Source of the DNA: a bacterium
Lineage (GTDB): Bacteria > SAR324 > XYD2-FULL-50-16 > G965216635
Assembly: GCA_965216635.1 (NCBI GenBank)
Contig: OZ244188.1
Span: 136,001-200,000 of the forward strand
DNA length: 64,000 nt
Direction of reading: 5' to 3'
The notes beneath the pieces are model-generated. The model did not search any database. It was not told the origin of the DNA and was given only the letters and a program-made list of their open reading frames with translations. This document shows positions 2,415 through 56,897 of this stretch, in pieces (the first letter of the stretch is position 1; every line of letters starts with the position of its first letter). The position numbers were made by a program, and so were the translations under genes.

Positions 2415-4697
2415 CTAGCGGCAAATAGCACTAAAAACCTCTACAGGCGTAGCAGGCGCATTCAGTTTGACTCTTTTATTTTTGGAAAAATAAGAAACTG
2501 CATCTTTGATTGCAAGCCAAACAGAATGAGCGAGCATCAAAGGAGGCTCTCCTACGGCTTTGGATTTAAAAATAGTATCTTCGGTATTAGAATAGGTTTT
2601 TAAATGAACTCTAAAGTCTTGCGGTAGATCGCTTACAGCTGGAATTTTGTAGGTATCAGGACCTGTCGCTAAAGCTCTACCATTTTCAGCCCACCCTAAT
2701 TCTTCACAAGTCAACCATCCCATACCCTGCACAAACCCTCCTTCTACTTGTCCTCTATCTACGGCTGGATTGATAGAATGCCCTATATCGTGCAAAATAT
2801 CTGTTCTTAAAACTTTGTATTCCCCCGTTAGAGCGTCTACTAAAACTTCAGATACCGAAGCTCCATAAGCAAAGTAGAAAAAAGGATGTCCCTTGTTGTT
2901 TTTTTTATCAAAATAAACTTTTGGTGTTTTGTAATAGCCCGTGCTAGATAGGGCTATTCTATTTTCATAAGCCAAAGCAATCAATTCTTCAAAAGTAATT
3001 TTTTTCTTTTTTTCTATCCAAACATTTCCTTGCTCAAAATGAATATTTTCTACTGGAGTTTTAAAATAAGCAGCTGCAAAGCGAATCAATCTTTCTTTTA
3101 TTTTTCTAGCTGCAATCTGAGCAGCCTTTCCATTTAAATCAGTTCCAGCAGAAGCAGCAGTAGGAGAAGTGTTAGGAACTTTATCGGTGCGGGTAGAAGT
3201 GATAGATATTTTATTTAAAGCAATTTGAAATTCTTCGGCTACAATTTGAGCTACTTTAATAAAAAGTCCTTGCCCCATTTCTGTGCCACCGTGATTGAGA
3301 TGCACACTGCCATCGCTATAGATATGAATCAAAGCCCCCGCTTGATTCATAAAGGTAACTGTGAAAGAAATACCAAACTTTACTGGAGAAATAGCGATCC
3401 CTTTTTTTAAAAAAGGGCTAGTTTGGTTAAATACAGCAACCTCTTGACGTCTTTTTTTATACTCCGAAGTTTGCACTAATTCTTCCACTAAACTAGAAAT
3501 TACTGGTTCCTCTATCTCCTGCTCGTAAGGAGTTATATTTCTACCATTTTTCTTTTCATAAAAATTGAGCCTCATAATATCTAAAGGATCTTTGTTTAGG
3601 TAACGTGCTATTTCATCTATAATATGCTCTATGTGGAGCATACCTTGAGGACCCCCAAATCCACGAAATGCAGTATTGGATACTGTATTTGTTTTACAAG
3701 GATAACCCTCTATTTTAACATTTTTGAAATAATAACAATTATCCGAATGCAACATAGCCCGATTTAAAATAGCTAAAGATAAATCCGCAGAATAACCACA
3801 TTGGGCGGCTAGTTTTATTTTAATAGCTTCAACCGCTCCCGCGTCATCAAATCCCACCTCGTAAGTATTATAAAAATTGTGTCTTTTGCCAGTAGTGATC
3901 ATATCGTCAAAACGGTTGAGTCTCATTTTCACTGGCAGCCGATTACGGTAAGCAAACAAGGCAGCAATACAAGCCGCTTGTGCAGCTTGAGTTTCTTTAC
4001 CCCCAAACCCTCCACCCATTCTTCTTGTATCTACTACTACTTGGGACATTTTTAGACCTAATACTTCGGCTACGAGTTTTTGAACTTCAGTAGGATTTTG
4101 AGTAGAGCAATAAAGAAAAATACCATCCTCCTGAGGCACAGCTAAAGAAATTTGTGTCTCTAAATAAAAATGATCCTGTCCTCCAATAAAAAGCTCCCCG
4201 CTCAAACGGTGTTTTGCTTTTTGCAAAGCAAGATTAGCGTTGCCCCGTTGTAGAGTTTGTGGCTCTAATACAAAAGATTTTTTCTGTAGTGCTTCTTTTA
4301 AATCCAAAATTGGCTCTAAAGGTTTATATTTTACTTTAATTTCTCGGACAGCCTTTCTTGCACTGTGCGTATCTTTAGCCGCCACTGCTACAATAGGCTG
4401 CCCGAAAAATTCTACTTTTTTATCTGCTAAAAGAGGGTCGCCATCAAACACTGGAGCAATATCTAATTTAGCTGGAACATCCTTCGCCTGCACAATATCT
4501 ACAACTCCTGCCATTTTTTGAGCTATAGAAATATCTACCTCTTGAATTTTAGCACAAGCCTGCTCACTACAAAAAAAACAGCAATGCAATGCCTCTGGAA
4601 AATCTAAAATATCATCTACATAAACAGCTTCACCGCTGACATGTTTTTCTGCACTATCGTGAGCGAATGGCTTTGTAATATAACTTAAATTTTTCAT
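2415..4697 (-). CDS. xdhB: Xanthine dehydrogenase, molybdopterin-binding subunit
   Basis: 760 aa; aldehyde oxidase/xanthine dehydrogenase a/b hammerhead and Mo-pterin binding regions (GFGGK, GQGL motifs). Confidence 0.85.
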   Translation of the reverse strand: MKNLSYITKPFAHDSAEKHVSGEAVYVDDILDFPEALHCCFFCSEQACAKIQEVDISIAQKMAGVVDIVQAKDVPAKLDIAPVFDGDPLLADKKVEFFGQPIVAVAAKDTHSARKAVREIKVKYKPLEPILDLKEALQKKSFVLEPQTLQRGNANLALQKAKHRLSGELFIGGQDHFYLETQISLAVPQEDGIFLYCSTQNPTEVQKLVAEVLGLKMSQVVVDTRRMGGGFGGKETQAAQAACIAALFAYRNRLPVKMRLNRFDDMITTGKRHNFYNTYEVGFDDAGAVEAIKIKLAAQCGYSADLSLAILNRAMLHSDNCYYFKNVKIEGYPCKTNTVSNTAFRGFGGPQGMLHIEHIIDEIARYLNKDPLDIMRLNFYEKKNGRNITPYEQEIEEPVISSLVEELVQTSEYKKRRQEVAVFNQTSPFLKKGIAISPVKFGISFTVTFMNQAGALIHIYSDGSVHLNHGGTEMGQGLFIKVAQIVAEEFQIALNKISITSTRTDKVPNTSPTAASAGTDLNGKAAQIAARKIKERLIRFAAAYFKTPVENIHFEQGNVWIEKKKKITFEELIALAYENRIALSSTGYYKTPKVYFDKKNNKGHPFFYFAYGASVSEVLVDALTGEYKVLRTDILHDIGHSINPAVDRGQVEGGFVQGMGWLTCEELGWAENGRALATGPDTYKIPAVSDLPQDFRVHLKTYSNTEDTIFKSKAVGEPPLMLAHSVWLAIKDAVSYFSKNKRVKLNAPATPVEVFSAICR

Positions 4698-4722
4698 CTT
4701 TAGAATTTTATGCCTCTAAGTT

Positions 4723-4824
4723 TACCAGCTAACCTGTTTTTATGCTTCATTGATTTTACCAGCTAACCTATCTTTATGCTTCATTGATTTTGCCAGCTAA
4801 TCTGTTTTTATGCTTCATTGATTT
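4723..4824. repeat. 34-bp tandem direct repeat x3 (TTACCAGCTAACCTGTTTTTATGCTTCATTGATT); the last copy overlaps and encodes the res C-terminus (…LAGKINEA*)
   Basis: Seen directly in sequence; each unit carries the same mini reading frame MKHKNRLAGKINEA* on the minus strand. Confidence 0.7.
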
Positions 4825-7800
4825 TGCCAGCTAATCTATCAAAATCATCCAACCAATATTTTCTATACTCTTCTGGAGCAAGAGTAGTGTCTCTCGTTTT
4901 GAAAAACAACTGAGTTTTTATTGTAAAGCCGTGAGACAAATATTTTTTTGCTTGGTTTTTATTTTCAATTTTTTCTTCAAATAGATTTTTATAGCCATCA
5001 ATTTTTCTTATCACATCGGTATGCTCTGTGCCTTTGGGATCTAAAAAAAGAATGGTATAATTCTTCTCTTTTTGCATCCAAAAAATAAAATCAGGGAAAA
5101 AATGGGATATAGAATTTGTCTTTGGGTTATAGTAAGGAATATGAATACTATCTAAAGTTTCGTCTAGTTTAGAAAACATCCACCAATCATAATTTTTAAA
5201 AACACTGTTATCTTTTTGCAAATATTCTTCTAAATTTTCAATAAACTTTATTTCGCTCGGCACATCAATAATATGGTTTAAGTAATCTACTTTTTCTTGC
5301 TCTGCTACAATTAGAGGATGGTAGTAATGGTTGGCTAAATATTTTATTTTAATTTTTTGATTGTTGAGCTCAAAAGTTTTTGCCGATTCGAATTTTTCAA
5401 ATAAAGTGAGTTGTTCGTCGTAATCTTTTCTTTTTCCCGTTTTGAATAATTCTTCTAATTCTAATTCTTTTGCTGCACTAGATTTATTTAGTTTTTGATT
5501 TTTTATAATTTCCAGTTTCTCTTTTAATTCTTCAATTTTATTTCCATCTTTGAATTTTATTTCTTTAAAATGCACAATTTCTGCTTCTAGTTTTTTAAAC
5601 CCATCAACCTCTTGGTTTTGAATGCTGAAATAATCTAAGATACTTTTGAGGTGTAAATCTGGTTTATCAATATTTCTTGTCTCGTCAAAATTGTAATATT
5701 TGCTTTGATTCTGCATACTTTCTGACACTTTTTTTAAGACTTTTATCTCGCATTCGTTTTTTAGCAAAACGATTTTATCTCCTAAATGTTCAAATAGTTT
5801 TTGAGTTTGGGTAAGGTCTTTTTTACTAACCGAATACTTTAAAACAGTGCTGGATTCTGCCAATATTTTATTGGATTTTTGATAAACAGGTACGAGTAAC
5901 AAACGATTTTTAATTTTTTCGTTTATTGCAAATAAGTCTCCCAAATTATGTTCTGGCTTTTGCTGTTCTTCTTGGAGTTTTTCTATTATATTTTTTAAAT
6001 TTTCTGCGTTGGTTCCAAAAACAAACAGACTTTCTAAGGCTAAAATATTTTGTTTTATTTTATCAAACAGCTCTTGCTCTGCTTCTTCAGCGGCTATTAA
6101 GTTTTGCAATCTTTTTCTTTTATTTTTTAGAGGCTCTATCCGCAACCCACGCCCTACCGATTGCAAAACAAATTTTTTAGAATCTTTTGCCATTCCTATA
6201 TTTACAAATAAAATAAGATTGGGTCTATTAGAATCCCACCCTTCGTAAAAAGAACGCGAGCCCATCAAAATATTTATATCCGAATCGTCTTGGTTGATTT
6301 TTTTGAATATACTTTCATTTTCCAAACTTTCTATGATTTGATAATCTGCCACTGTGTCTTTTAACCAGCCAGAAATATCTCCAATTTTTATCAAAGCAAA
6401 AGGTTTCTCCGAAGTCTGTAGTTTGAAAGCAATCTCTTTTTTATTTTTTGGAACCTTTAAAATTTCAATTTTGCCGAAATTATTTGCATTGAATACAGCT
6501 TGCAGAATTTTCTTGTAGCTTATTTTTGAAAGTATATTGCTATCTATTTCTATTTTTGTATTTTCAAATAGATATTTATTATTGTCCGAAAATTCAGCAA
6601 GCAATTCAGTTTTAGCTTCTTCCAGTAAATTTGGTTTAATTTGGTTGTTAGCTATTTTTTCTAGTTCTGCAAAGAAAAGTTTTAAGTCTGGTTCTTTAAT
6701 AATTTTATCCAAATCAGATTTTTTTGTATTGACGGAATTAACCAGTGTCAAGAGCAAGGGGCGGTGATAAAGACTGCCATTTGTTTTTCTTATTTTTTTA
6801 AAATGCTTGTAGCTATAGGTTTGTAAAAGCAGAGTTTTTAAAACAATTTTTTGTTTTTCTATTTCGGAGAAGTTATCTTGTTCCTTAAAAGCAGTTACTT
6901 TCTGTTTTGAAACATAGATATGCTTGCCGTATCCAGCTCCTATAAATTTGGCGAGATTAAAATCAAAAACGCAGCTAGCGTAGTCTCTAGCATCGGTAAA
7001 AGTAGCAGAGAAATTAAACAAAAAACCGTTCCTTGAAAGAATAGAATAAAAAATCTGCCGTTTGCTTTCTTCTTTGTCTCCTTTGTGGGCTTCGTCTAAA
7101 AGAATATACCATTTCCCAAAGTTATCGTAATTTTTAAAATTCACAATGTTTTGCTTGTGTTCATCAGAAATTAAATCAGAGCGGTAATAAAAAATAGTTA
7201 TCTCTTTTTTGGAATAGGGCAGAGCATTTTCGTGTTTTACGCTCTCGTATTCTTTCAAACTTTTTAAGAGGATCTTGGTCTCAAAATTATCTCTATTAAA
7301 CTCTGCTATATGCTCTTTGAACTGTTGTAAAAGATCTTCTCGGTGCGCCAAAAACAAAATATCGTTTTTAGGAATTTCTCCTTTTCTTATCAGCTCTCCT
7401 AAAAGATGAATAAGTTTTACAATCACAAGCGTTTTACCAGAGCCAGTTGCCATCCAAAAACTCATCCGATTGATAAAAGAAGCGAAAGAGATTTTGTCGC
7501 CTGAAACTGAGTATTCCTCACTGTATTCCAAAAGATATTTAGTCGTTTTGTTTTCTTTGCTTTTCTTTTTGCTGCCTTTTTGATTCAAGGTATAATCAAA
7601 ATTTTCATCGTAGTTATTGTTGCGGTATTTTTGAAAAAAATTATTTTTTCTAGTCTGGTAGTCTTTGTGATTTTCGCTGTAAAACAAGTGCAGTCCTTTC
7701 AGTGAATTTTCTAGTGCTTCTTTTTGAAAATCGTAAAGTCTTTTTTTTTGAGAAAAACTTTTTAAATCAAAATTTTGCCATTCTGCTGGCAAGTTGGCAA

Positions 7801-7849
7801 AAGAAATTTTTTTAACTATTTCCTGTAGATAATGCTCCATTATTCCCAC
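4808..7849 (-). CDS. res: Type III restriction endonuclease, Res subunit (SF2 helicase-nuclease)
   Basis: Walker A ATGSGKT, DEAH-box-like LLDEAHKG, 1013 aa, 10-nt overlap with upstream mod gene. Confidence 0.85.
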   Translation of the reverse strand: MGIMEHYLQEIVKKISFANLPAEWQNFDLKSFSQKKRLYDFQKEALENSLKGLHLFYSENHKDYQTRKNNFFQKYRNNNYDENFDYTLNQKGSKKKSKENKTTKYLLEYSEEYSVSGDKISFASFINRMSFWMATGSGKTLVIVKLIHLLGELIRKGEIPKNDILFLAHREDLLQQFKEHIAEFNRDNFETKILLKSLKEYESVKHENALPYSKKEITIFYYRSDLISDEHKQNIVNFKNYDNFGKWYILLDEAHKGDKEESKRQIFYSILSRNGFLFNFSATFTDARDYASCVFDFNLAKFIGAGYGKHIYVSKQKVTAFKEQDNFSEIEKQKIVLKTLLLQTYSYKHFKKIRKTNGSLYHRPLLLTLVNSVNTKKSDLDKIIKEPDLKLFFAELEKIANNQIKPNLLEEAKTELLAEFSDNNKYLFENTKIEIDSNILSKISYKKILQAVFNANNFGKIEILKVPKNKKEIAFKLQTSEKPFALIKIGDISGWLKDTVADYQIIESLENESIFKKINQDDSDINILMGSRSFYEGWDSNRPNLILFVNIGMAKDSKKFVLQSVGRGLRIEPLKNKRKRLQNLIAAEEAEQELFDKIKQNILALESLFVFGTNAENLKNIIEKLQEEQQKPEHNLGDLFAINEKIKNRLLLVPVYQKSNKILAESSTVLKYSVSKKDLTQTQKLFEHLGDKIVLLKNECEIKVLKKVSESMQNQSKYYNFDETRNIDKPDLHLKSILDYFSIQNQEVDGFKKLEAEIVHFKEIKFKDGNKIEELKEKLEIIKNQKLNKSSAAKELELEELFKTGKRKDYDEQLTLFEKFESAKTFELNNQKIKIKYLANHYYHPLIVAEQEKVDYLNHIIDVPSEIKFIENLEEYLQKDNSVFKNYDWWMFSKLDETLDSIHIPYYNPKTNSISHFFPDFIFWMQKEKNYTILFLDPKGTEHTDVIRKIDGYKNLFEEKIENKNQAKKYLSHGFTIKTQLFFKTRDTTLAPEEYRKYWLDDFDRLAGKINEA

Positions 7850-12237: not shown

Positions 12238-13491
12238 ATGCAAGAAGTAACAAAAAGGGCGTTAAATAGCTCTCTTAAAAATTGTGAGACAAAATTAGCT
12301 CAATTTAACCAACGGGCTGGTTTTCAACGGGCGAGTTTTCGTGGAGCGTTATTGCTAGGTGCGGTTTTGTTGAGTTTGCTATTTGTAGGTAATCTGCAAG
12401 CACAGAGCAGCGTTAGCACAAAACAGGGATTTTTCGCGGGTATTGTCTATCTACAAGGATTCGGAGTAGATACCACAAAAACTAGCACAAGCTCTGCTAC
12501 TGGCTATGAAATCACTGGCTATGGAGAGGCAACCACTGGAATAGATTTAACTGGTGGAAATCCTAACTGGCCTACTGCAACAGCAACTGGAATGAGAGCT
12601 TTACTAAAAGCAAACTGTGAAACAGGAATAACGAGGATTACACAAACAGATGGAAATTACTTTTTCCCCGTGAGTACCTTTAGCTCTTTTAATGAGATTA
12701 AGGATGCTACTGTAACATCCCTAGACAGTGTTACTGGAGTTCGATTTAGAAATGGAAAAGACCCAAGTGAAGACTCCCATTGTCGTAGGCATTTTTACGG
12801 TGATCTTTCCTCTGGAAGAACCGCTATTAATTTTTCTGCCTATGAGATAGCGACTCCAGATTCGCTTTCAAAATCCCCTCTCCCCAGCACAGAGAGCGAC
12901 GCACTCAACGGTGTCGGTCTGCAAGTCGGCTGGCGAGGAGAAAAATGGAGAGCCTCCTTGACTCACTTTACTGGCAAGGGTGGAGCTAACGAGCTCGTCA
13001 ATACAGTGGTGATGGCGGAGTATTTTTTTCACGAGGAGTTTTTTGCAGGAGGCGGTCTAGCGAGTATGAAGCTTACCAATGGCTCTACTAGTGCTTCGGC
13101 TACTAGTCCCGTGTTAACGGTAGGCTATAAGGAGAACTTAACTCCCAACCTATTCTTTAATATTAGCTTGACGAAGTATATCTCGGGGGTTTCTCTGAGC
13201 CGTTCTGCTCCAGCTTCTGCTCCGATTCCCACTGGCAGAACTTTTAGCGAAACACAGACTGCACGCGGTGATTCAGCCTTTCTTGGAGGCCTAGTTTATA
13301 TAAATGACAGGGGAAGTGCATTTAAATTCAGTTATGATGTTGGTGCTATTGTAGATAGCAGAATAGAAGTAACCCAAGTCCGCACAAGAGATGTGGAAAT
13401 ACAAGAAGTTGAAATTCCAGCAGCGGAGAAAATTGAAGCTGAAATCAAAGCCCCCGTAGTCGTCAGCATTTCCCTGCTTTGGCGCTTTTAA
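12238..13491 (+). CDS. Paralogous outer-membrane beta-barrel protein, copy 1 (conserved N-terminal MQEVTKRALNSSLKNCETK extension, hydrophobic signal-like segment, C-terminal …VVVSISLLWRF)
   Basis: C-terminal aromatic-X-Phe OMP signature, alternating beta-strand pattern, 5-member paralog family with shared upstream region. Confidence 0.6.
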   Translation: MQEVTKRALNSSLKNCETKLAQFNQRAGFQRASFRGALLLGAVLLSLLFVGNLQAQSSVSTKQGFFAGIVYLQGFGVDTTKTSTSSATGYEITGYGEATTGIDLTGGNPNWPTATATGMRALLKANCETGITRITQTDGNYFFPVSTFSSFNEIKDATVTSLDSVTGVRFRNGKDPSEDSHCRRHFYGDLSSGRTAINFSAYEIATPDSLSKSPLPSTESDALNGVGLQVGWRGEKWRASLTHFTGKGGANELVNTVVMAEYFFHEEFFAGGGLASMKLTNGSTSASATSPVLTVGYKENLTPNLFFNISLTKYISGVSLSRSAPASAPIPTGRTFSETQTARGDSAFLGGLVYINDRGSAFKFSYDVGAIVDSRIEVTQVRTRDVEIQEVEIPAAEKIEAEIKAPVVVSISLLWRF

Positions 13492-13597
13492 CAGAGTTGT
13501 TGAAAAAAATGCAAAATTCTTTTTTTTTGTTTGCTTTTAATTTTTTTTCAGTTATATTTCTAATTTTAATCTCTTCTAACTTTTATTAAATATTATT

Positions 13598-14902
13598 ATG
13601 CAAGAAGTAACAAAAAGAGCGTTAAAAACACCTCTTAAAAATTGTGAGACAAAAGTAGCCCAATTTAATCAACGGGCTGGTTTTCAATGGGCTGGTTTTC
13701 AATGGGCTGGTTTTCAATGGGCTGGCTTCAAATGGAATGGCGTTGTATTGCTAGGTGCGATTTTGTTGAGTTTGCTATTTGTAGGTAATCTGCAAGCACA
13801 GAGCAGCGTTAGCACAAAACAGGGATTTTTCGCGGGTATTGTTTATCTACAAGGATTCGGAGTAGATACCACAAAAACTAGCACAAGCTCTGCTACTGGC
13901 TATGAAATCACTGGCTATTCAAACGACGAAACTAGAATAGACGCAACAGGTGGGAATATTTATTTGAATAAGATAGTACTAACTAGCATCAGAGTTTTAT
14001 TCAAAGAAAACTGTGAAGCAGGAACAACGAGTATTACACAAACAGGTGGAGATGCAAATTCAAATGGAAATTACTATTTTGCCTCGAAGCACTTCAGCTC
14101 TTTTAATGAGATTAAGGATGCTACTGAAACAGCCAAGGGAGGCACTATTGTTGAAACTGGATTTAGAAATGGAACAGTGGCAACTCATGACTCCTATTGT
14201 CGCAGGTACTTTTACGGAGATCTTTCCTCTGGAAGAACCACTATTAGTTTTTCTGCCTATGAGATAGCGACTCCAGATTCGCCTTCAAAACCCCCCGTCA
14301 CCAGCACAGAGAGCGACGCACTCAACGGTGTCGGTCTGCAAGTCGGCTGGCGAGGAGAAAAATGGAGAGCCTCTCTGACTCACTTTACTGGCAAGGGTGG
14401 AGCTAACGAGCTCGTCAATACAGTGGTGATGGCGGAGTATTTTTTTCACGAGGAGTTTTTTGCAGGAGGCGGTCTAGCGAGTATGAAACTTACCAATGGA
14501 TCTACTAGCGCCTCGGCTACTAGTCCCGTGTTAACGGTAGGCTATAAGGAGAACTTAACTCCCAACCTATTCTTTAATATTAGCTTGACGAAGTATATCT
14601 CGGGTATTTCTCTGAGCCGTTCTACTAATCCAGCTCAGATTCCCACTGGCGCCCCTCTTATAAGAAAAACACAGACTAAAGATGGTGATACAGTGTACAT
14701 TGGAGGAATAGTTGAGAGGAATGAAGCACGGTTTCGATATAGCTCCGCATTAGAAAGTGTGTCAGATTCCAGAATAGAAGCAACCCAAGTCCGTAGCCGA
14801 GATGTGGAAATACAACAAGTCACAACTCCAGCAGCGCAGAAGATAGAAGCCGAAATCAAAGCCCCCGTAGTCGTCAGCATTTCCCTGCTGTGGCGCTTTT
14901 AA
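13598..14902 (+). CDS. Paralogous outer-membrane beta-barrel protein, copy 2 (4 copies of GFQWA pentapeptide repeat in N-terminal extension)
   Basis: As copy 1; 15-bp in-frame tandem repeat GCTGGTTTTCAATGG. Confidence 0.6.
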   Translation: MQEVTKRALKTPLKNCETKVAQFNQRAGFQWAGFQWAGFQWAGFKWNGVVLLGAILLSLLFVGNLQAQSSVSTKQGFFAGIVYLQGFGVDTTKTSTSSATGYEITGYSNDETRIDATGGNIYLNKIVLTSIRVLFKENCEAGTTSITQTGGDANSNGNYYFASKHFSSFNEIKDATETAKGGTIVETGFRNGTVATHDSYCRRYFYGDLSSGRTTISFSAYEIATPDSPSKPPVTSTESDALNGVGLQVGWRGEKWRASLTHFTGKGGANELVNTVVMAEYFFHEEFFAGGGLASMKLTNGSTSASATSPVLTVGYKENLTPNLFFNISLTKYISGISLSRSTNPAQIPTGAPLIRKTQTKDGDTVYIGGIVERNEARFRYSSALESVSDSRIEATQVRSRDVEIQQVTTPAAQKIEAEIKAPVVVSISLLWRF

Positions 14903-15009
14903 CAGAATTGTTGAAAAAAATGCAAAATTCTTTTTTTTTATTTTCTTTTTTATTTTTTTTCAGTTATATTTCTATTTTTACCTTCTTCTAACCTTTATTA
15001 AATATTATT

Positions 15010-16353
15010 ATGCAAGAAGTAACAAAAAGGGCGTTAAAAACACCTCTTAAAAATTGTGAGACAAAAGTAGCTCAGGCTGGTTTTCAATGGGCTAACCAAT
15101 GGGCTAATCAACGGGCTGGTTTTCAATGGGCTAATCAACGGGCTGGATTCCAATGGAATGGCGTTGTATTGCTAGGTGCGGTTTTGTTGAGTTTGCTATT
15201 TGTAGGTAATCTGCAAGCACAGAGCCCCAATGGAAACACAAAACAGGGATTTTTCGCGGGTATTGTTTATCTACAAGGATTCGGAGTAGATACCACAAAA
15301 ACTAGCACAAGCTCTGCTACTGGCTATGAAATCACTGGCTATTCAAATGACGAAACTAGAATAGACGCAACCTCTGGATTGTCTTATTGGGATACCCCAG
15401 CGGGGACGACAGCCGGAATTGGAGCTAGAGCTTTAATAGCGGCAAACTGTGAACGTGATGCAACAAATACTACATATCTAGGTGAAAATTATTATCTTCC
15501 AAGAAATTTCTATTTCTTCGATTCTTTTGATCCTGGTGCGAAACAGTCTTTAGCTGATATTAATAGTTCAATGAATGATGCTACTGTTACTTTTAATGAC
15601 GACACTATTTCTAGTAGAATCTTTCGTTCAGGATTGGTAGCTGGAGAAACATCCTATTGTAAAACTTACTTTGATAGCCTTCCCCAAATTAATTTTTCTG
15701 CCTATGATGTAACTCCAGATTCGCCTTCAAAACCCCCCGTCACCAGCACAGAGAGCAACGCACTCAACGGTGTTGGTCTGCAATTCGGCTGGCGAGGAGA
15801 AAAATGGAGAGCCTCCTTGACTCACTTTACTGGCAAAGGTGGAGCTAACGAGCTCGTCAATACAGTGGTGATGGCGGAGTATTTTTTTCACGAGGAGTTT
15901 TTTGTAGGAGGCGGTCTAGCGAGTATGAAGCTTACCAATGGCTCTACTAGCGCCTCGGCTACTAGTCCCGTGATCACGGTAGGCTATAAGGAGAACTTAA
16001 CTCCCAACCTATTCTTTAATATTAGCTTGACAAAGTATATCTCGGGTATTTCTCTGAGCCGTTCTACTAGTCCTACAGCTACTAACAAAACTTTTACCCG
16101 CACACAGACTGAACGCGGTAAAGATAGTCATAAAGCAACGATTGGTAGCAGAATCACAGTTCCTGCTAATCGGCAAAGCGGGGTAGGCGCTATTTTTCAA
16201 CAAGCAGCAGGTCCTGATAATAGAATAGAAGTAACCCAATTCCGCAGCAGAGATGTGGAAATAGAAGAAGTCACAACTCCAGCAACGCAGAAGATAGAAG
16301 CTGAAATCAAAGCCCCCGTAGTCGTCAGCATTTCCCTGCTGTGGCGCTTTTAA
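15010..16353 (+). CDS. Paralogous outer-membrane beta-barrel protein, copy 3 (mixed GFQWA/NQWA/NQRA repeats)
   Basis: As copy 1. Confidence 0.6.
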   Translation: MQEVTKRALKTPLKNCETKVAQAGFQWANQWANQRAGFQWANQRAGFQWNGVVLLGAVLLSLLFVGNLQAQSPNGNTKQGFFAGIVYLQGFGVDTTKTSTSSATGYEITGYSNDETRIDATSGLSYWDTPAGTTAGIGARALIAANCERDATNTTYLGENYYLPRNFYFFDSFDPGAKQSLADINSSMNDATVTFNDDTISSRIFRSGLVAGETSYCKTYFDSLPQINFSAYDVTPDSPSKPPVTSTESNALNGVGLQFGWRGEKWRASLTHFTGKGGANELVNTVVMAEYFFHEEFFVGGGLASMKLTNGSTSASATSPVITVGYKENLTPNLFFNISLTKYISGISLSRSTSPTATNKTFTRTQTERGKDSHKATIGSRITVPANRQSGVGAIFQQAAGPDNRIEVTQFRSRDVEIEEVTTPATQKIEAEIKAPVVVSISLLWRF

Positions 16354-16383
16354 TAGAGTTGTGTAGGCACCGAATCACCTAAA

Positions 16384-16521
16384 CTTTTGAATTTGCATTC
16401 TGTTTAGCCTATGCAGCGTTAAAAAAAAATTTTAACTCTTGAAATATTACATATATTCCTGCGAGCTAAAATTTTTTTTTGCCTTGCCTAGCCGTCACAT
16501 AACGCAAATTCAAAGGTCTAT
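16384..16521. mobile_element. MITE-like element inserted in the loop of the post-OMP3 hairpin (GGCACCGAATCACCTAAAC | element | ACCTAAACTCGGTGCC), with an apparent 8-bp duplication ACCTAAAC
   Basis: The uninterrupted version of the same hairpin exists on the other strand near 57005-57035; element body is >90% identical to the 59556-59699 copy. Confidence 0.65.
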
Positions 16522-16805
16522 TACCTAAACTCGGTGCCATTCAAAAAACCACCTCCCCGCCAAACCGCATCCCCTCCAAAAACACCTAAAAAAACAAAAT
16601 TGCAGGGACATTTTTTTTGCTTTTCGTGAAAACAAAAAAAACACAAAGCTCTCACTAAAAATAAACCCTTGCATTAAGTTATATTTTGGCTAAACTAGGA
16701 AAATTTTAAAAAAAGATAAAAAGTTATGTTTTTTTTGTTTGCTTTTAATTTTTTTTCAGTTATATTTCTATTTTTACCTTCTTCTAACCTTTATTAAATA
16801 TTATT

Positions 16806-18089
16806 ATGCAAGAAGTAACAAAAAGGGCGTTAAATAGCTCTCTTAAAAATTGTGAGACAAAAGTAGCTCAGGCTGGTTTTCAATGGGCTAATCAACGGGC
16901 TGGATTCCAATGGAATGGCGTTGTATTGCTAGGTGCGGTTTTGTTGAGTTTGCTATTTGTAGGTAATCTGAAAGCACAAACCCAAAATGGTTCCAATGGA
17001 AGCACAAAACAGGGATTTTTCGCTGGTATTGTCTATCTACAAGGATTCGGAGTAGATACCACAAAAAGCAGCACAAACTCTGCTACTGGCTATAGAATCA
17101 AATATTCAAACGATATTACTGGAATAGACGCAACAGGTGGGAATCATACGTTGAGCCCTTTACTTTTACTAACTAGCATCAGAGCTTTATTCAAAGAAAA
17201 CTGTGAAGAAGGAACAACGAATTTTACACAAACGGGTGGACAAGCAAATTCAAATGGAAATTACTATTTTACCAGGGATTACTTCGTATCTTTTAATGAG
17301 ATTAAGGATGCTACTGTAATAGAATTTGTAGACCCTATTGCTCGAACTAGATTTAACAATGGAAAAGTGGTAACTCATGACTCCTATTGTCGCAGGTACT
17401 TTTACGGTGATCTTTCCTCCACTAGAACCCCTATTAATCTTCCTGATCCTGATGTGACTGCAGATTCGCTTTCAAAACCCCCCGTCACCAGCACAGAGAG
17501 CGATGCACTCAACGGTATCGGTCTGCAAGTCGGCTGGCGAGGGGAAAAATGGAGAGCCTCTCTGACTCACTTCACTGGCAAAGGTGGAGCTAACGAGCTC
17601 GCCAATACAGTGGTAATGGCGGATTATTTTTTTCACGAGAAATTTTTTGCAGGAGGCGGTCTAGCGAGTATGAAGCTTACCAATGGTTCAACTAGCGCCT
17701 CGGCTACTAGCCCCGTGGTTCAAGTAGGCTATAAGGAAAACTTAACTCCCAACCTATTCTTTAATATTAGCTTGACAAAGTATATCTCGGGTATTTCTCT
17801 GAGCCGTTCTACTAATCCAGCTCCGATTCCCACTGGCGCCCCTCTTATTAGAAAAACACAGACTAAAGATGGTGATACAGTATTCATTGGAGGAACAGTT
17901 ACTAGAATTGACAGGTCGAATCAATATAACTCCTTATTTAGCAGTGTGTTAGATTCCAGAATAGAAGTAACCCAAGTCCGCAGCCGAGATGTGGAAATAC
18001 AACAAGTCACAACTCCAGCAGCGCAGAAGATAGAAGCCGAAATCAAAGCCCCCGTAGTCGTCAGCATTTCCCTGCTTTGGCGCTTTTAA
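16806..18089 (+). CDS. Paralogous outer-membrane beta-barrel protein, copy 4
   Basis: As copy 1; shares about 270-bp upstream region with copy 1. Confidence 0.6.
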   Translation: MQEVTKRALNSSLKNCETKVAQAGFQWANQRAGFQWNGVVLLGAVLLSLLFVGNLKAQTQNGSNGSTKQGFFAGIVYLQGFGVDTTKSSTNSATGYRIKYSNDITGIDATGGNHTLSPLLLLTSIRALFKENCEEGTTNFTQTGGQANSNGNYYFTRDYFVSFNEIKDATVIEFVDPIARTRFNNGKVVTHDSYCRRYFYGDLSSTRTPINLPDPDVTADSLSKPPVTSTESDALNGIGLQVGWRGEKWRASLTHFTGKGGANELANTVVMADYFFHEKFFAGGGLASMKLTNGSTSASATSPVVQVGYKENLTPNLFFNISLTKYISGISLSRSTNPAPIPTGAPLIRKTQTKDGDTVFIGGTVTRIDRSNQYNSLFSSVLDSRIEVTQVRSRDVEIQQVTTPAAQKIEAEIKAPVVVSISLLWRF

Positions 18090-18402: not shown

Positions 18403-18500
18403 CTTTTTATTTTTTGGGGCTTGACTTCACTAGAATAGTTTGCTAAAATAAAACAACCAAAATAAAATGTTAAGAAAAATAAAATGTTAAGAAAAATAAA

Positions 18501-19022
18501 ATGTTAAGAACAACTACCGCACAAAAATTTACTTCTACTAAAATCTACGATCTTTTGATTGGACTAGGTGCAGAAAAAAAGAGCGCAGAGATTGCTATTG
18601 GAGAGTTTGTAGAACTGGTCCCAAAAGCTTTGGCTTCTAGTACAACAGAAACTGGTTTGGATACCACTCTTCCTACGGACAAAGGGGATATCTGGAGATT
18701 AGAATCCATCATTTCAGACAACAAAAGCGATACAGACATAAAACTGAAAGAAATTGAGAAGGAAATAGTAAAAATCAAAAGCAACCTAAAAGAAACTATA
18801 GCAAAAACCAAAAGCGACCTAAAAGAAACTATAGCAAAAATCGAAAGCAACTTAAAAGAAACTATAGCAAAAAACAAAAGCGATACCGATTTAAAAATAG
18901 AAATGATGAGAACAGAAGCAGAAAAAAACAAAAACGCTCTATTGATTATAGGAATTTCAACACAGCTAGCAGTTGGTGGGCTGGTTGTGGCTGTATTACA
19001 GCTTTTAAAAGTTTTGACTTAA
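18501..19022 (+). CDS. Bdr-like / DUF1640-like small coiled-coil membrane protein (173 aa; C-terminal cassette …LQLLKVLT)
   Basis: Conserved N-domain MLRTTTAQKFTSTKIYDLLIGLGAEKK…, 11-aa (33-bp) tandem repeats KSDLKETIAKx, C-terminal TM helix; architecture parallels Borrelia Bdr proteins. Confidence 0.55.
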   Translation: MLRTTTAQKFTSTKIYDLLIGLGAEKKSAEIAIGEFVELVPKALASSTTETGLDTTLPTDKGDIWRLESIISDNKSDTDIKLKEIEKEIVKIKSNLKETIAKTKSDLKETIAKIESNLKETIAKNKSDTDLKIEMMRTEAEKNKNALLIIGISTQLAVGGLVVAVLQLLKVLT

Positions 19023-19110
19023 TAAAGTAGCAGAAAAGTTTAGCTTATCTGCAAAATGTATTTTGGCGAGGGGATATTTTTTGGGGGCATTGACTTTAAA
19101 AGGAGAATTT

Positions 19111-19180
19111 GCCAAAATAAGTTTGCCAAAATAAGTTTGCCAAAATAAGTTTGCCAAAATAAGTTTGCCAAAATAAGTTT
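19111..19180. repeat. 14-bp tandem repeat GCCAAAATAAGTTT x5 in the promoter region of the second Bdr-like transcription unit (downstream of TTGACT at 19090)
   Basis: Seen directly; the same repeat is present in 2 copies at 20439-20466 upstream of the next unit. Confidence 0.8.
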
Positions 19181-19251
19181 GATTGCTATGATCTTTTTAG
19201 GTAGAATTTATAAAAATAAAACAACCAGCTATAAAAACCTTTAAAAATAAA

Positions 19252-19788
19252 ATGTTAAGAACAACTACAGCACAAAAATTTACTTCTACTAAAATCTACG
19301 ATCTTTTGATTGGACTAGGTGCAGAAAAAAAGAGCGCAGAGATTGCTATTGGAGAGTTTGTAGAACTGGTCCCAAAAGCTTTGGCTTCTAGTACAACAGA
19401 AAATGGTTTGGATGTCACTCTTCCTACGGACAAAGGGGATATCTGGAGATTGGAATCCATCATTTCAGACAACAAGAACGATACAGACAGAATAATAACA
19501 GAGAACAGAAACGACCTAGAAAGAATAATAACAGACAATAAAAATGATACAGACCTAAAACTGAAAGATATTGAGAGTAAAATCGTAAAAACCAAAAGCG
19601 ACTTGATAAGAATAATAACAGACAATAAAAATGATACAGACCTGAAATTTAAGGATATAGATTTAAAAATAGAAAGGATGAGAACAGAAGTAGAAAAAAA
19701 CAAAAACGCTCTATTGATTATAGGAATTTCAACACAGCTAGCAGTTGGTGGGCTGGTTGTGGCTATTTTACAATTTTTACAAAACTAA
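19252..19788 (+). CDS. Bdr-like small coiled-coil membrane protein (178 aa; C-terminal cassette …AILQFLQN)
   Basis: Paralog family as above. Confidence 0.55.
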   Translation: MLRTTTAQKFTSTKIYDLLIGLGAEKKSAEIAIGEFVELVPKALASSTTENGLDVTLPTDKGDIWRLESIISDNKNDTDRIITENRNDLERIITDNKNDTDLKLKDIESKIVKTKSDLIRIITDNKNDTDLKFKDIDLKIERMRTEVEKNKNALLIIGISTQLAVGGLVVAILQFLQN

Positions 19789-19795
19789 AAATAAA

Positions 19796-20350
19796 ATGTT
19801 AAGAACAGCTACGACACAAAAATTTACTTCTACCAAAATCTACGATCTTTTGATTGGACTAGGTGCAGAAAAAAAGAAAGCAGAGATTGCTATTGGAGAG
19901 TTTGTAGAACTGAGACCAAAAGCTTTGGCTTCTAGTACAACAGAAACGGGTTTGGATACCACTCTTCCTACGGACAAAGGGGATATCTGGAGATTGGAAT
20001 CTATCATTTCAGAGAACAAGAACGATACAGATATAAAACTGAAAGATATTGAGAGTAAAATCGTAGAAACCAAAAGCGACCTAGAAAAAACTATAGCAAA
20101 AACCAAAAGCGACCTAGAAAAAACTATAGCAAAAATCGAAAGCAACCTAAAAGAAACTATAGCAAAAATCGAAAGCAACTTAAAAGAAACTATAGCAAAA
20201 AATAAAAGCGATACCGATTTAAAAATAGAAATGATGAGAACAGAAGTAGAAAAAAACAAAAACGCTTTATTGATTATAGGAATTTCAACACAGCTAGCAG
20301 TTGGTGGGCTGGTTGTGGCTGCATTACAGCTTTTAAAAGTTTTGACTTAA
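19796..20350 (+). CDS. Bdr-like small coiled-coil membrane protein (184 aa from MLRTATTQ; ORF-track start 19745 is an extension into the upstream gene). Separated by only 7 bp from the upstream paralog
   Basis: Paralog family as above. Confidence 0.55.
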   Translation: MLRTATTQKFTSTKIYDLLIGLGAEKKKAEIAIGEFVELRPKALASSTTETGLDTTLPTDKGDIWRLESIISENKNDTDIKLKDIESKIVETKSDLEKTIAKTKSDLEKTIAKIESNLKETIAKIESNLKETIAKNKSDTDLKIEMMRTEVEKNKNALLIIGISTQLAVGGLVVAALQLLKVLT

Positions 20351-20438
20351 TAAAGTAGCAGAAAAGTTTAGCTTATCTGCAAAATGTATTTTGGTGAGGG
20401 GATATTTTTTTGGGGCATTGACTTTAAAAGGAGAATTT

Positions 20439-20466
20439 GCCAAAATAAGTTTGCCAAAATAAGTTT
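20439..20466. repeat. 14-bp tandem repeat GCCAAAATAAGTTT x2 (same promoter context as 19111-19180)
   Basis: Seen directly. Confidence 0.8.
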
Positions 20467-20536
20467 GATTGCTATGATGTTTTTAGTAGAATTTATAAAA
20501 ATAAAACAACCAAAATAAAAACTTTTAAAAAATAAA

Positions 20537-21106
20537 ATGTTAAGAACAACTACAGCACAAAACTTTACTTCTACTAAAATCTACGATCTTTTGATTGGAC
20601 TAGGTGCAGAAAAAAAGAAAGCAGAGATTGCTATTGGAGAGTTTGTAGAACTGAGACCAAAAGCTTTGGCTTCTAGTACAACAGAAACTGGTTTGGATGT
20701 CACTCTTCCTACGGACAAAGGGGATATCTGGAGATTGGAATCTATCATTTCAGAGAACAAGAACGATACAGATATAAAACTGAAAGATATTGAGAGTAAA
20801 ATCGTAGAAACCAAAAGTAACCTAGAAAAAATAATAACAGAAAACAGAAACGACCTAGAAAAAATAATAACAAAAAACAGAAACGACCTAGAAAAAATAA
20901 TAACAGACAACAGAAACGACCTAGAAAGAATAATAACAGACAATAAAAATGATACAGACCTGAAATTTAAGGATATAGATTTAAAAATAGAAAGGATGAG
21001 AACAGAAGTAGAAAAAAACAAAAACGCTCTGTTATTCTGGGGTGTGACAGCCCAGCTGACTATTGGTGGGTTGGTTGTGACTATACTACAATTTTTACAA
21101 AACTAA
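20537..21106 (+). CDS. Bdr-like small coiled-coil membrane protein (189 aa; C-terminal cassette …LLFWGVTAQLTIGGLVVTILQFLQN)
   Basis: Paralog family as above. Confidence 0.55.
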   Translation: MLRTTTAQNFTSTKIYDLLIGLGAEKKKAEIAIGEFVELRPKALASSTTETGLDVTLPTDKGDIWRLESIISENKNDTDIKLKDIESKIVETKSNLEKIITENRNDLEKIITKNRNDLEKIITDNRNDLERIITDNKNDTDLKFKDIDLKIERMRTEVEKNKNALLFWGVTAQLTIGGLVVTILQFLQN

Positions 21107-21113: not shown

Positions 21114-21617
21114 ATGTTAAGAACAACTACAGCACAAAACTTTACTTCTACTAAAATCTACGATCTTTTGATTGGACTAGGTGCGGAAAAAAAGAAAGCA
21201 GAGATTGCTATTGGAGAGTTTGTAGAACTGAGACCAAAAGCTTTGGCTTCTAGTGCAGCAAAAACGGGTTTGGATACCACTCTTCCTACGGACAAAGGGG
21301 ATATCTGGAGATTGGAATCTATCATTTCAGAGAACAAGAACGATACAGATATAAAACTGAAAGATATTGAGAGTAAAATCGTAGAAACCAAAAGTAACCT
21401 AGAAAGAATAATAACAGACAACAGAAACGATCTAGAAAGAATAATAACAGACAATAAAAATGATACAGACCTGAAATTTAAGGATATAGATTTAAAAATA
21501 GAAAGGATGAGAACAGAAGTAGAAAAAAACAAAAACGCTCTATTGATTATAGGAATTTCAACACAGCTAGCAGTTGGTGGGCTGGTTGTGACTATACTAC
21601 AATTTTTACAAAACTAG
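21114..21617 (+). CDS. Bdr-like small coiled-coil membrane protein (167 aa)
   Basis: Paralog family as above. Confidence 0.55.
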   Translation: MLRTTTAQNFTSTKIYDLLIGLGAEKKKAEIAIGEFVELRPKALASSAAKTGLDTTLPTDKGDIWRLESIISENKNDTDIKLKDIESKIVETKSNLERIITDNRNDLERIITDNKNDTDLKFKDIDLKIERMRTEVEKNKNALLIIGISTQLAVGGLVVTILQFLQN

Positions 21618-30056: not shown

Positions 30057-30405
30057 AGAAATCGGATTAAGTGTATGTTTTCTAACATTATTTTCTTGTT
30101 TAAATTTATTTCTAACTCAATTAAAGCGCTATACTTGACAAATTATTTTCTTATGGTTATAATAAACCTAAATTTCAACTAAGAACTGCATTGTTTAAGA
30201 CAGTCGGCACCAGTTATCTTAATTTATTAAGGCTATCTTAATTTATTAAGGTAGAGGAAGGTTTAAAAATGCCTACCGAGACGATTTTCCAAATCATTGG
30301 ACAGGGATTAATTAAGATTGCTGAATTAGGGATTCTAGTTCAATAGTCTCTAATGCCTACCGTCTCACCTGCCTTTTACCTGCATTTCTACAACATTAAA
30401 AAACA

Positions 30406-48339: not shown

Positions 48340-48618
48340 ATGCAGGTTATTCAGGTGATCTATGAACCAGATTTTGAAAAAAATTCTAAAAAAGAATTGC
48401 AAAAGAATTATTCTCAAGTAAAAAAAATTTTTGATAGAAAAGTCAATTTTCTTCTAAAGGAAGGACTTTTATACCCCTCTCTAAACACCAAAAAAACTGA
48501 ACCAAAATCAAGCAATATTTGGGAGTTTTACATCACAAGAAAAGAATATCGTTGTTTTTTTCGTTATGATAAGAAAGAAAAAACAACGACTAATATAAAA
48601 ATAGGCAAACACTTATAA
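48340..48618 (+). CDS. Small basic protein (92 aa), putative RelE/HigB (Gp49-like) family toxin partner of the upstream Panacea protein
   Basis: Size, pI, and C-terminal EFYITRKEYRCFFRYDKKEK pattern reminiscent of Gp49/HigB toxins; 5-bp spacing to upstream gene. Weak call. Confidence 0.35.
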   Translation: MQVIQVIYEPDFEKNSKKELQKNYSQVKKIFDRKVNFLLKEGLLYPSLNTKKTEPKSSNIWEFYITRKEYRCFFRYDKKEKTTTNIKIGKHL

Positions 48619-48650
48619 TTTGAATCTGCATAACTTAAAACTGCATAACT

Positions 48651-51116: not shown

Positions 51117-51288
51117 TTATTCTGGTGCCAATTATTTAGGTTGCCAATTATTTAGGTTGCCAGTAACAATAAAGGCATTATTCTAGTGCTAGTTATTGGA
51201 GTTTTTTTTGTAGATTTTGCCTGAATTTTGCAATAATCAGCTACAAGTTGTAATTTTTAACATTTTTAACAACCAACGAATACCAATT

Positions 51289-52872: not shown

Positions 52873-53451
52873 TTATGCTGCCACTTTTAAAAATTGTAAC
52901 AATCCAAATATTATAACAATCAATATACCCGTGCTGGTTAGAGTAGTCGCAATAACCCATTTGATTATATGAACTCTACTTTCTGATATTTTTAACTCAA
53001 GGTCGCTTTTGATTTTTGCTATAGTTTCTTTTAGGTTGCTTTTGGTTTCTACGATTTTACTCTCAATATCTTTCAGTTTTAGGTCTGTATCATTTTTATT
53101 GTCTGTTATTATTTTTTCTAGGTCGTTTCTGTTTTTTGTTATTATTTTTTCTAGGTCGTTTCTGTTTTTTGTTATTATTTTTTCTGTATCGTTTTTGTTG
53201 TCTGCTATTATTCTTATCAAGTCGTTTTTGTTCTCTGAAATGATGGATTCCAATCTCCAGATATCGCCTTTGTCCGTAGGAAGAGTGGTATCCAAACCCG
53301 TTTCTGTTGTACTAGAAGCCAAAGCTTTTGGGACCAGTTCTACAAACTCTCCAATAGCAATCTCTGCGCTCTTTTTTTCTGCACCTAGTCCAATCAAAAG
53401 ATCGTAGATTTTAGTAGAAGTAAATTTTTGTGCTGTAGTTGTTCTTAACAT
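52873..53451 (-). CDS. Bdr-like small coiled-coil membrane protein (192 aa; third C-terminal cassette …ESRVHIIKWVIATTLTSTGILIVIIFGLLQFLKVAA)
   Basis: Paralog family; N-domain identical to cluster-1 genes. Confidence 0.55.
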   Translation of the reverse strand: MLRTTTAQKFTSTKIYDLLIGLGAEKKSAEIAIGEFVELVPKALASSTTETGLDTTLPTDKGDIWRLESIISENKNDLIRIIADNKNDTEKIITKNRNDLEKIITKNRNDLEKIITDNKNDTDLKLKDIESKIVETKSNLKETIAKIKSDLELKISESRVHIIKWVIATTLTSTGILIVIIFGLLQFLKVAA

Positions 53452-53458
53452 TTTATTT

Positions 53459-53962
53459 TTAGTTTTGTAAAAATTGCAGTATAGTCACAACCAACCCACC
53501 AACTGCTAACTGGACTGACACACCCCAAAATAATAAAGAGTTTTTATTTTTTTCTGCTTCTGTTCTCATCCTTTCTATTTTTAAATCTATATCCTTAAAT
53601 TTCAGGTCTGTATCGCTTTTGATTTTTGCTATAGTTTCTTTTAGGTCGCTTTTGTTTTTTTCTGCTTCTGTTCTCATCTTTTCTATTTTCAAATCGGTAT
53701 CGTTTTTGTTGTCTGCTATTATTCTTATCAAGTCGTTTTTGTTCTCTGAAATGATGGATTCCAATCTCCAGATATCGCCTTTGTCCGTAGGAAGAGTGGT
53801 ATCCAAACCAGTTTCTGTTGTACTAGAAGCCAAAGCTTTTGGGACCAGTTCTACAAACTCTCCAATAGCAATCTCTGCGCTCTTTTTCTCCGCACCTAGT
53901 CCAATCAAAAGATCGTAGATTTTAGTAGAAGTAAATTTTTGTGCTGTAGTTGTTCTTAACAT
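53459..53962 (-). CDS. Bdr-like small coiled-coil membrane protein (167 aa)
   Basis: Paralog family; identical protein to 54502-55005. Confidence 0.55.
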   Translation of the reverse strand: MLRTTTAQKFTSTKIYDLLIGLGAEKKSAEIAIGEFVELVPKALASSTTETGLDTTLPTDKGDIWRLESIISENKNDLIRIIADNKNDTDLKIEKMRTEAEKNKSDLKETIAKIKSDTDLKFKDIDLKIERMRTEAEKNKNSLLFWGVSVQLAVGGLVVTILQFLQN

Positions 53963-53969
53963 TTTATTT

Positions 53970-54494
53970 TTAGTTTTGTAAAAATTGCAATATAGTCACA
54001 ACCAACCCACCAACTGCTAACTGGACTGACACACCCCAAAATAATAAAGAGTTTTTATTTTTTTCTGCTTCTGTTCTCATCCTTTCTATTTTTAAATCTA
54101 TATCCTTAAATTTCAGGTCTGTATCGCTTTTGATTTTTGCTATAGTTTCTTTTAGTTCGCTTTTGTTTTTTTCTGCTTCTGTTCTCATCTTTTCTATTTT
54201 CAAATCGGTATCGCTTTTGCTTTCTATTATTTTTCCCTCAATTTCTTTCAGTTTTATGTCTGTATCGTTTTTGTTCTCTGAAATGATGGATTCCAATCTC
54301 CAGATATCGCCTTTGTCCGTAGGAAGAGTGGTATCCAAACCAGTTTCTGTTGTACTAGAAGCCAAAGCTTTTGGGACCAGTTCTACAAACTCTCCAATAG
54401 CAATCTCTGCGCTCTTTTTTTCTGCACCTAGTCCAATCAAAAGATCGTAGATTTTAGTAGAAGTAAATTTTTGTGCTGTAGTTGTTCTTAACAT
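53970..54494 (-). CDS. Bdr-like small coiled-coil membrane protein (174 aa)
   Basis: Paralog family; 1-aa difference from 55013-55537. Confidence 0.55.
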   Translation of the reverse strand: MLRTTTAQKFTSTKIYDLLIGLGAEKKSAEIAIGEFVELVPKALASSTTETGLDTTLPTDKGDIWRLESIISENKNDTDIKLKEIEGKIIESKSDTDLKIEKMRTEAEKNKSELKETIAKIKSDTDLKFKDIDLKIERMRTEAEKNKNSLLFWGVSVQLAVGGLVVTILQFLQN

Positions 54495-54501
54495 TTTATT
54501 T

Positions 54502-55005: not shown

Positions 55006-55012
55006 TTTATTT

Positions 55013-55537: not shown

Positions 55538-55631
55538 TTTACTTTTATAAGGTTTTTATTTTGGTTATTTTATTTGGTTGTTTTATTTTAGCAAACTATT
55601 CTACTAAAGTCAAGCCCAAAAAAATAAAAAG

Positions 55632-55637
55632 ATTATA
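55632..55637 (-). promoter_or_regulatory. Putative -10 box (TATAAT on minus strand) of the 5-gene Bdr-like transcription unit, inside the conserved promoter module
   Basis: Reverse complement of 55625-55690 matches the 18360-18410 module upstream of array 1. Confidence 0.35.
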
Positions 55638-55737
55638 GGGAAAAAATTAAAAAAATGTCCCCTGCAATTTTGTTTTTTAGTGGGTTTTGAGGGGGACGCA
55701 GTTTTTAGGTGGGTTTTGACGGGGAGGTATTTTATGT

Positions 55738-56238: not shown

Positions 56239-56245
56239 TTTACTT

Positions 56246-56803: not shown

Positions 56804-56897
56804 TTTACTTTTATAAGGTTTTTATTTTGGTTATTTTATTTGGTTGTTTTATTTTAGCAAATTGTCCTATTAAAGTCAAGTTCTAAAAAATAAAAAG

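Follow-up and report, generated by a model that had tools for sequence, protein, structure and literature searches.

A 14-bp tandem repeat duplicating the −10 segment of a conserved promoter ahead of putative coiled-coil protein genes

In a 64-kb stretch of bacterial DNA (64,000 nucleotides, called the window below) we found that a perfect 14-bp tandem array duplicates the −10 segment of a conserved promoter. Five head-to-tail copies of the unit GCCAAAATAAGTTT occupy 19111-19180 (site A) and two occupy 20439-20466 (site B). All seven are perfect, and the number of copies has changed between the two sites, which are paralogous and almost identical in other respects. Adding or removing units leaves the −35/−10 spacing as it was, since in each candidate promoter one of the two hexamers comes from the array and stays in register. 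Judging from the alignment with array-free paralogues, what the repeat probably does is make the mRNA leader longer, and not turn the promoter ON and OFF. The explanation that we favour, in which slippage duplicated a −10 box and gave rise to a leader repeat of the hmw type, possibly with a graded effect on expression, is in our judgement about evenly balanced between right and wrong when taken as a whole.

The two arrays and the family promoter

Tandem Repeats Finder placed the site A array at 19108-19181 on the plus strand (period 14, 5.3 copies, 100% matches, score 148) and the site B array at 20436-20467, also on the plus strand (2.3 perfect copies, 100% matches). The unit, TTTGCCAAAATAAG, reads GCCAAAATAAGTTT in the phase used in a preliminary description of this DNA. 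The observed number of unit matches was reached in none of 100 dinucleotide-preserving shuffles. The repeat and its five and two copies, as given in that description, were thus confirmed by the sequence, by Tandem Repeats Finder and by the shuffles. Sites A and B are paralogous intergenic regions. Upstream of the array they differ in 3 of 148 aligned columns (98% identical, the ends of the upstream genes included), which bears out the conservation of the upstream regions noted earlier, and downstream of it in 11 of 111 columns (90% identical). The sole large difference between them is a gap of 42 bp, that is, exactly three units.

Every unit holds the motif CAAAAT, as had been pointed out, and in addition the motif is preceded by TGc, so that each unit carries an extended-−10-like box. 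A TTGACT hexamer was said to lie directly upstream of both arrays. The one at site A is at 19090-19095 as described; the second occupies 20418-20423 and not 20419-20424, an error of one position.

The sequences upstream of five operons of the downstream gene family were aligned, and they share the core (T-rich)GGGC-TTGACT-N14-TGc-[T/C]AAAAT-AA. The strict motif TTGACT-N14-TGn-[TC]AAAAT matched five times in the 64 kb when both strands were searched, at 18421, 19090, 20418, 55613(−) and 56879(−), in every case at the head of a family operon and nowhere else, and the site was found at none of the seven internal gene junctions of the family clusters. A looser promoter pattern was not enriched in the window (12 found, 13.8 in shuffles), so the case for a promoter rests on its conserved position and on paralogous homology and not on motif counts. 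The best reading of these alignments is that a conserved sigma-70-type promoter heads every operon of the family. This agrees with the earlier view that the arrays lie in a promoter region, each ahead of a gene pair.

Three of the paralogous promoters are free of an array and have the form TTGACT-17-TGcTAAAAT. The first, at 18421-18449 on the plus strand, heads the gene 18501-19022 and served as homology reference; the other two, on the minus strand, head a five-gene block (55585-55613) and a gene pair (56851-56879). At site A the −35 hexamer TTGACT (19090-19095, plus strand) is homologous to the TTGACT at 18421, 20418, 55613(−) and 56879(−), and it is followed at a distance of 17 bp by the extended −10 TGcCAAAAT of unit 1 (19110-19118, plus strand; hexamer 19113-19118). 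Site B has the same arrangement, TTGACT-17-TGcCAAAAT, at 20418-20446 on the plus strand. Unit 1 aligns on the TGcTAAAAT of the paralogues, and the repeat unit covers −17 to −4 of the promoter TTGACT-N17-TGn[T/C]AAAAT. The CAAAAT of unit 1, with C at −12, is a weaker −10 than the TAAAAT of the paralogues. Counted by eye on the alignment, 15 of the 17 spacer positions of site A are identical to those of the 56879(−) promoter. From the −35 to the ATG there are 76-80 nt in the array-free copies of the window; where an array is present the distance is 119 and 162 nt. A segment of about 37 nt after the array is specific to sites A and B, and homology to the other leaders restarts at AAATAAAACAACC. 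Three groups of metagenomic relatives with at most 59% protein identity (L001 and L033, two loci forming one group; L040; L055) have TTGAC[TA]-17/18-TAnnAT with the −35 at 86-107 nt before the ATG.

An inverted copy of the unit with 12 of 14 positions matching was also seen at 19054-19067 on the minus strand, and again at 20382-20395. It lies 23 nt upstream of the −35 within a small palindrome, CAAAATGTATTTTG. It may be a coincidence, since the number of near-matches to the unit outside the arrays, three in the window, equals the chance expectation (2.8).

The downstream gene family and other tandem duplications in the window

The five-copy array is followed by the gene pair 19252-19788 and 19796-20350 and the two-copy array by the pair 20537-21106 and 21114-21617, all on the plus strand. 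Together with the gene 18501-19022 they make up a plus-strand cluster of five tandem paralogues. A second cluster of seven paralogues lies on the minus strand at 52873-56803, giving 12 copies in the window in total. The proteins have in common a conserved N-terminal domain of about 75 residues, then 11-residue (33-bp) repeats in variable number, and at the C-terminus a hydrophobic tail. We found 67 relatives in about 5.8 billion proteins; approximately 24 of them are encoded on the 2,394,643-bp source contig and the rest come from ENA metagenome assemblies, and the best reading of this distribution is that the family is lineage-restricted. Against the Pfam model PF07798 (CCDC90-like, formerly DUF1640), 21 of 35 members gave matches at E ≤ 0.01 that stayed below the threshold, the best with E = 6.7e-6. 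The best protein of the window scored 20.9 bits (E = 3.4e-4), the Pfam gathering threshold being 33.5 bits, and precomputed PF07798 matches are on record for several paralogues. From these profile matches and their layout, the downstream genes look like divergent members of the DUF1640/CCDC90-like tail-anchored coiled-coil proteins.

The 33-bp coding repeats vary in number and type over the 12 paralogues (18765-18881, 20067-20211, 20820-20940, 53104-53232 and 56400-56480), with the alternative types TIAKxKSDLKE and IITDNRNDLEK, and there are two alternative C-terminal anchors in the family. We also noticed direct repeats of about 150 bp, 98% identical, at 18960-19107 and 20288-20435. They are separated by 1.33 kb and enclose the gene pair 19252-20350. 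Homologous recombination between the two copies would remove this pair or double it, and the cluster may expand and contract in this way. Within single contigs of the metagenomic relatives L030-L054 (ENA sample ERZ26869290), the same gene blocks are present in repeated and inverted copies, which are either genuine multi-copy palindromic arrays or artefacts of long-read assembly.

Both family clusters are flanked by paralogous proteins of about 420-450 amino acids, five in all (12238-18089 and 57088-58344), and the same order, a protein of the flanking type followed by a family gene, is seen on the relative contig L001. These proteins have no Pfam or NCBIfam match, end in …SISLLWRF and look like outer-membrane proteins. 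In their N-termini, variable 15-bp repeats encoding (A)GFQWANQR precede the hydrophobic core of a signal peptide (12310, 13669, 15084-15156). The window also encodes citramalate synthase, DapA, IDH, Pta, sulfate adenylyltransferase/APS kinase and xanthine dehydrogenase. The arrays had been compared with repeats in other host-associated bacteria; given these ordinary biosynthetic enzymes, it is not established that the organism lives with a host. A scan of genome contigs for HisS, seeded on exact 8-mers of the query, had 48% identity to a MAG as its best outcome, which does not amount to a phylogenetic placement.

Short tandem duplications are frequent in this DNA. About 12 intergenic arrays with a period of at least 10 were counted in roughly 11.7 kb of non-ORF DNA, for example at 30215-30251, at 48615-48650 just before pheT and at 51126-51162 just after it, and there are many in-frame coding repeats as well, so the genome as a whole seems to acquire short tandem duplications readily. 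The leader of the gene 18501-19022 contains a perfect 17-bp repeat, AAAATAAAATGTTAAGA, in 3.1 copies (18459-18510) which includes the ATG, so that the start region is triplicated. Two further ATGs, at 18467 and 18484, are not in frame with the gene and start overlapping upstream ORFs of seven codons (MLRKIKC*); the stop of the second overlaps the true start codon, and a change in copy number would alter the number of these upstream ORFs. On the minus strand, the stretch from the −10 to the ATG contains, in both operons, imperfect 13-bp repeats of 2.6 copies, TAACCAAAATAAAA in coding-strand orientation (55554-55589 and 56820-56855). Taking the 17-bp, 14-bp and 13-bp repeats together, all five family leaders in the window carry a tandem duplication. 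Away from the family, a 34-bp repeat of 3.4 copies (4721-4834, minus strand) duplicates the last codons (…RLAGKINEA) and the stop of the ORF 4808-7849, with the extra copies located between this ORF and the xanthine dehydrogenase gene (2415-4697), and a 69-bp repeat of 2.2 copies with 98% identity is found at 60992-61140 inside a gene of the MlaD/MCE family (60496-61842).

Promoter geometry and the meaning of copy number

We then compared the spacing of the promoter elements at the two sites. The promoter TTGACT-17-CAAAAT formed with unit 1 has the same spacing at two and at five copies, which is also that of the array-free promoters. A second promoter-like site is formed by TTGCCA from the last unit and, 16 bp further on, TGcTATGAT from the unique flank (19165-19192, plus strand, and again 20451-20478). 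It has the best consensus score in the region (10 of 12 positions, compared with 9 of 12 for the unit-1 promoter), and its spacing is likewise independent of copy number. A third and weaker site, TTGATT-17-TAGAAT, is present at 19179-19207 on the plus strand; a 1-nt deletion shortens its spacer to 16 bp at site B. The units are thus inserted between the first two promoter-like sites and inside neither spacer. What copy number does alter is the distance between these sites, how many extended-−10-like boxes there are and, should transcription use the homologous promoter, the predicted length of the leader.

We propose that the array arose by recent tandem duplication of 14 bp of the promoter, namely the TG, the −10 hexamer and three further bases. 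Unit 1 would have kept the ancestral position 17 bp after TTGACT, leaving the geometry unchanged. Transcription would be expected to start about 7 nt after the hexamer, near G19125, placing units 2 to n at +1 to +56 of the transcript, and the last unit together with the unique flank would form the second promoter-like site, also indifferent to copy number. With such a start the predicted leader measures about 127 nt (site A) and about 84 nt (site B), compared with about 45-50 nt in the array-free copies. The repeat would lie between the transcription start and the ATG if the −10 at 19113-19118 is used, and not if the promoter made by the last unit and the flank is used. With each extra unit the leader would grow by 14 nt and gain a further TGcCAAAAT box, so any effect on expression should be graded, as it is for the hmw leader repeat. 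Possible routes are the leader length itself, extra start sites, or re-binding of sigma-70 and promoter-proximal pausing at the −10-like boxes. By analogy with known repeats, a graded effect of copy number on expression is possible.

Gain and loss of units would come about through replication slippage or template switching, both independent of RecA; by comparison with other short repeats this is the most likely mutational mechanism. Direct repeats of less than 200 bp are known to rearrange without RecA by these routes (PMC7145654), and a recombinational mechanism, which the preliminary description had preferred to slipped-strand mispairing, is therefore not required. Its reason for this preference, that a 14-bp unit is longer than classic SSRs, is not supported either, because the 7-bp hmw repeats show that longer units act as contingency repeats (PMC8262952).

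A bolder form of this proposal, which we regard as a long shot, is that the array is a copy-number-tunable stack of extended −10 boxes. Such a stack would give rise to a ladder of start sites or to serial pausing through recapture of sigma-70, and thereby to heritable, reversible and graded expression states in individual operons of an envelope-protein family with roughly 24 members. If this were true, a contingency mechanism would be built from an iterated core promoter element and not from a spacer tract. More generally, if copy number is mutable and tunes expression, the array would be a natural test bed for iterated −10-like boxes in initiation and early elongation, and the multi-copy tail-anchored coiled-coil proteins would be individually adjustable, as expected of variable envelope components.

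An RNA-structure mechanism was rejected. In predicted folds, the accessibility of the start codon did not depend on copy number, staying flat at 0.65-0.70 for one to eight units. The intergenic RNAs folded no better than shuffled sequences (z = −0.31 and −1.28), the leaders being weakly structured, and an Rfam scan of the window gave nothing but a tRNA, with no match at the leaders. A sigma-54 promoter on the minus strand (TTGGCA...) was discarded because the −12 TTGC element is missing at the required spacing. A small ORF runs through the array (19056-19148 and 20384-20518); it starts upstream of the −35 and is 30 aa long with five units, where it stops in unit 3, and 44 aa long with two. It has neither a ribosome-binding site nor homologues and is probably not a gene. 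In addition, we looked for variants of the array in other DNA. The exact two-unit pattern was absent from JGI metagenomes and viral contigs, and scans of genome and metagenome contig collections with the family profile gave no relatives.

The most serious rival to a duplicated −10 box with an effect in the leader is neutral origin, that is, one recent slippage duplication among many in A-rich intergenic DNA, which lies on a promoter by chance and makes no meaningful difference to expression. We consider this possible, if rather less than probable. It is a serious rival because short tandem duplications are so common in the intergenic DNA of the window, as the dozen or so arrays show, and all five family leaders contain a duplication of some kind. 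The 34-bp array merely duplicates the 3' end of a gene. Among 27 related metagenomic loci, Tandem Repeats Finder detected no array at the −10, one group alone having an imperfect leader repeat (17 nt in 2.1 copies; L040, 2640-2674), and the predicted accessibility of the start site is indifferent to copy number. On the other hand, an entire extended-−10-like box lies in the unit and each unit junction creates a −35-like TTGCCA, which makes total silence in RNA polymerase binding unlikely. The array also has the highest copy number of all intergenic arrays in the window, and the identical unit sequence has been retained at two loci. Were the array neutral, it would still document a genome unusually loaded with young short tandem duplications in leaders and at gene ends.

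Alternatively, the working promoter may lie downstream, at TTGCCA/TGcTATGAT or at TTGATT/TAGAAT, with the units acting as an A-rich UP-like tract, a direct-repeat operator for some DNA-binding protein or a competing polymerase sink. If TTGCCA-16-TGcTATGAT works, the array stands upstream of the promoter and not in the leader. Five direct repeats at a fixed spacing resemble operator or iteron-like arrays. The high consensus score with its TG extension argues for this site, and the distance from its −35 to the ATG, 87 nt at site A and 86 nt at site B, falls within the 76-107 nt of the family. However, TATGAT lies in the insertion of about 37 nt that is unique to sites A and B and is without a counterpart in the paralogues and relatives, no candidate regulator gene is adjacent, and a 14-bp spacing is out of helical phase. 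We think this alternative unlikely.

The preliminary description had proposed a phase-variable promoter in which copy number sets the −35/−10 spacing and so turns expression ON or OFF. It is true that the array adjoins TTGACT, that every unit has a CAAAAT and that copy number differs between the paralogous sites. Both candidate promoters nevertheless keep their spacing at any copy number. When TTGACT is paired with the TATGAT of the flank, the spacers measure 21, 35, 49 and 91 bp for 0, 1, 2 and 5 units, none of which is functional. Each CAAAAT within the array has TAAGTT as the hexamer 17 bp upstream, with one of six positions in common with TTGACA, so the internal boxes are without a −35 partner. 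Spacer-length ON/OFF switching is thus unsupported and contradicted by the geometry, and we consider the proposal very improbable. It is scarcely conceivable that the array is a collapsed or expanded repeat due to assembly or sequencing, even though there is a single assembly with one 2,394,643-bp contig, since the 70-bp array is shorter than any modern read, all seven units of the two sites are perfect, both junctions are clean, and the unit is shared by two loci whose flanks differ in point substitutions.

Comparison with known systems

The downstream genes had been called Bdr-like after the Borrelia family, and what remains of this likeness is one of architecture. As in Bdr proteins, there is an N-terminal domain, followed by variable short repeats (here of 11 residues, or 33 bp) and a C-terminal hydrophobic anchor, and the family is a large one whose paralogues differ in repeat number. 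In contrast, no KID repeat (Pfam PF02524) was detected at E ≤ 0.1 in five proteins of the window or at E ≤ 0.01 in 35 members, while a control Bdr protein of B31 cp32-1 scored 70.6 bits on the same model. Comparison of the family with Bdr by hhalign gave a probability of 17% over 11 columns, and a tblastn search of 72,556 plasmids returned no match at E ≤ 1; a search of phages was also negative, and the intergenic region had no homology to plasmids. In place of the KID repeat or detectable homology, the family has the sub-threshold matches to PF07798, and its genes are carried by a 2.39-Mb contig and not by plasmids of the cp32 type.

A repeat in a promoter-proximal region is a kind of feature that is already known. 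Among intergenic bacterial VNTR or minisatellite loci are the MIRU-VNTR loci of mycobacteria. Tandem repeat tracts of Borrelia are a further example (PMC3303823). Such loci have units of about 10 to 100 bp in head-to-tail order, and the present arrays, with a period of 14 and 100% identity, share this layout and differ in copy number between related sequences; the variation here is between paralogous sites of one genome. In spacer-tract phase-variable promoters, homopolymer or dinucleotide tracts stand between the −35 and the −10, as in Neisseria porA and opc, H. influenzae hif and Bordetella fim. There too the repeat is in the promoter of a multi-copy gene family for envelope proteins, but the tract lies inside the spacer and each unit shifts the hexamer spacing, whereas at sites A and B no tract lies within or overlaps the −35/−10 spacer and the spacing is fixed.

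The boxes downstream of unit 1 are reminiscent of sigma-70 pause elements. In E. coli, sigma-70-dependent pauses at +16 to +20 are brought about by a −10-like box that follows the −10 at a distance of roughly one helical turn; in lambda PR' and the E. coli 'G1d' promoters this box lies, similarly, within the first 25 transcribed nucleotides (PMC7876045). The CAAAAT at 19127-19132, preceded by TGc and 14 bp after the −10, has the A at position 2 and the T at position 6 of such an element, a resemblance in geometry only; this CAAAAT of unit 2 is predicted to be at +3 to +8. Pausing at the boxes of sites A and B would be in keeping with this arrangement. In the known cases there is a single box, here an iterated series that varies in copy number.

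The closest analogue is the 7-bp leader repeat of H. influenzae hmw. The repeats of hmw1A and hmw2A belong to the 5' UTR of P2, the promoter that is functional there, and expression decreases in a graded manner as copies are added (PMC8262952). In both systems a heteropolymeric repeat stands between the promoter and the start codon (here if the family promoter is used), two paralogous loci per genome have different copy numbers (5.3 and 2.3 at sites A and B), and the spacing of the promoter hexamers is untouched, with copy number changing how long the 5' UTR is. The systems differ in the unit, 14 bp here and 7 bp in hmw, and in copy number, 2 to 5 here and about 13 to 28 in hmw. The unit described here is a copy of an extended −10 box, and the organism and the gene family are unrelated. 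If copy number is mutable here and tunes expression, the hmw-type rheostat would be extended to a longer unit that is itself a core promoter element.
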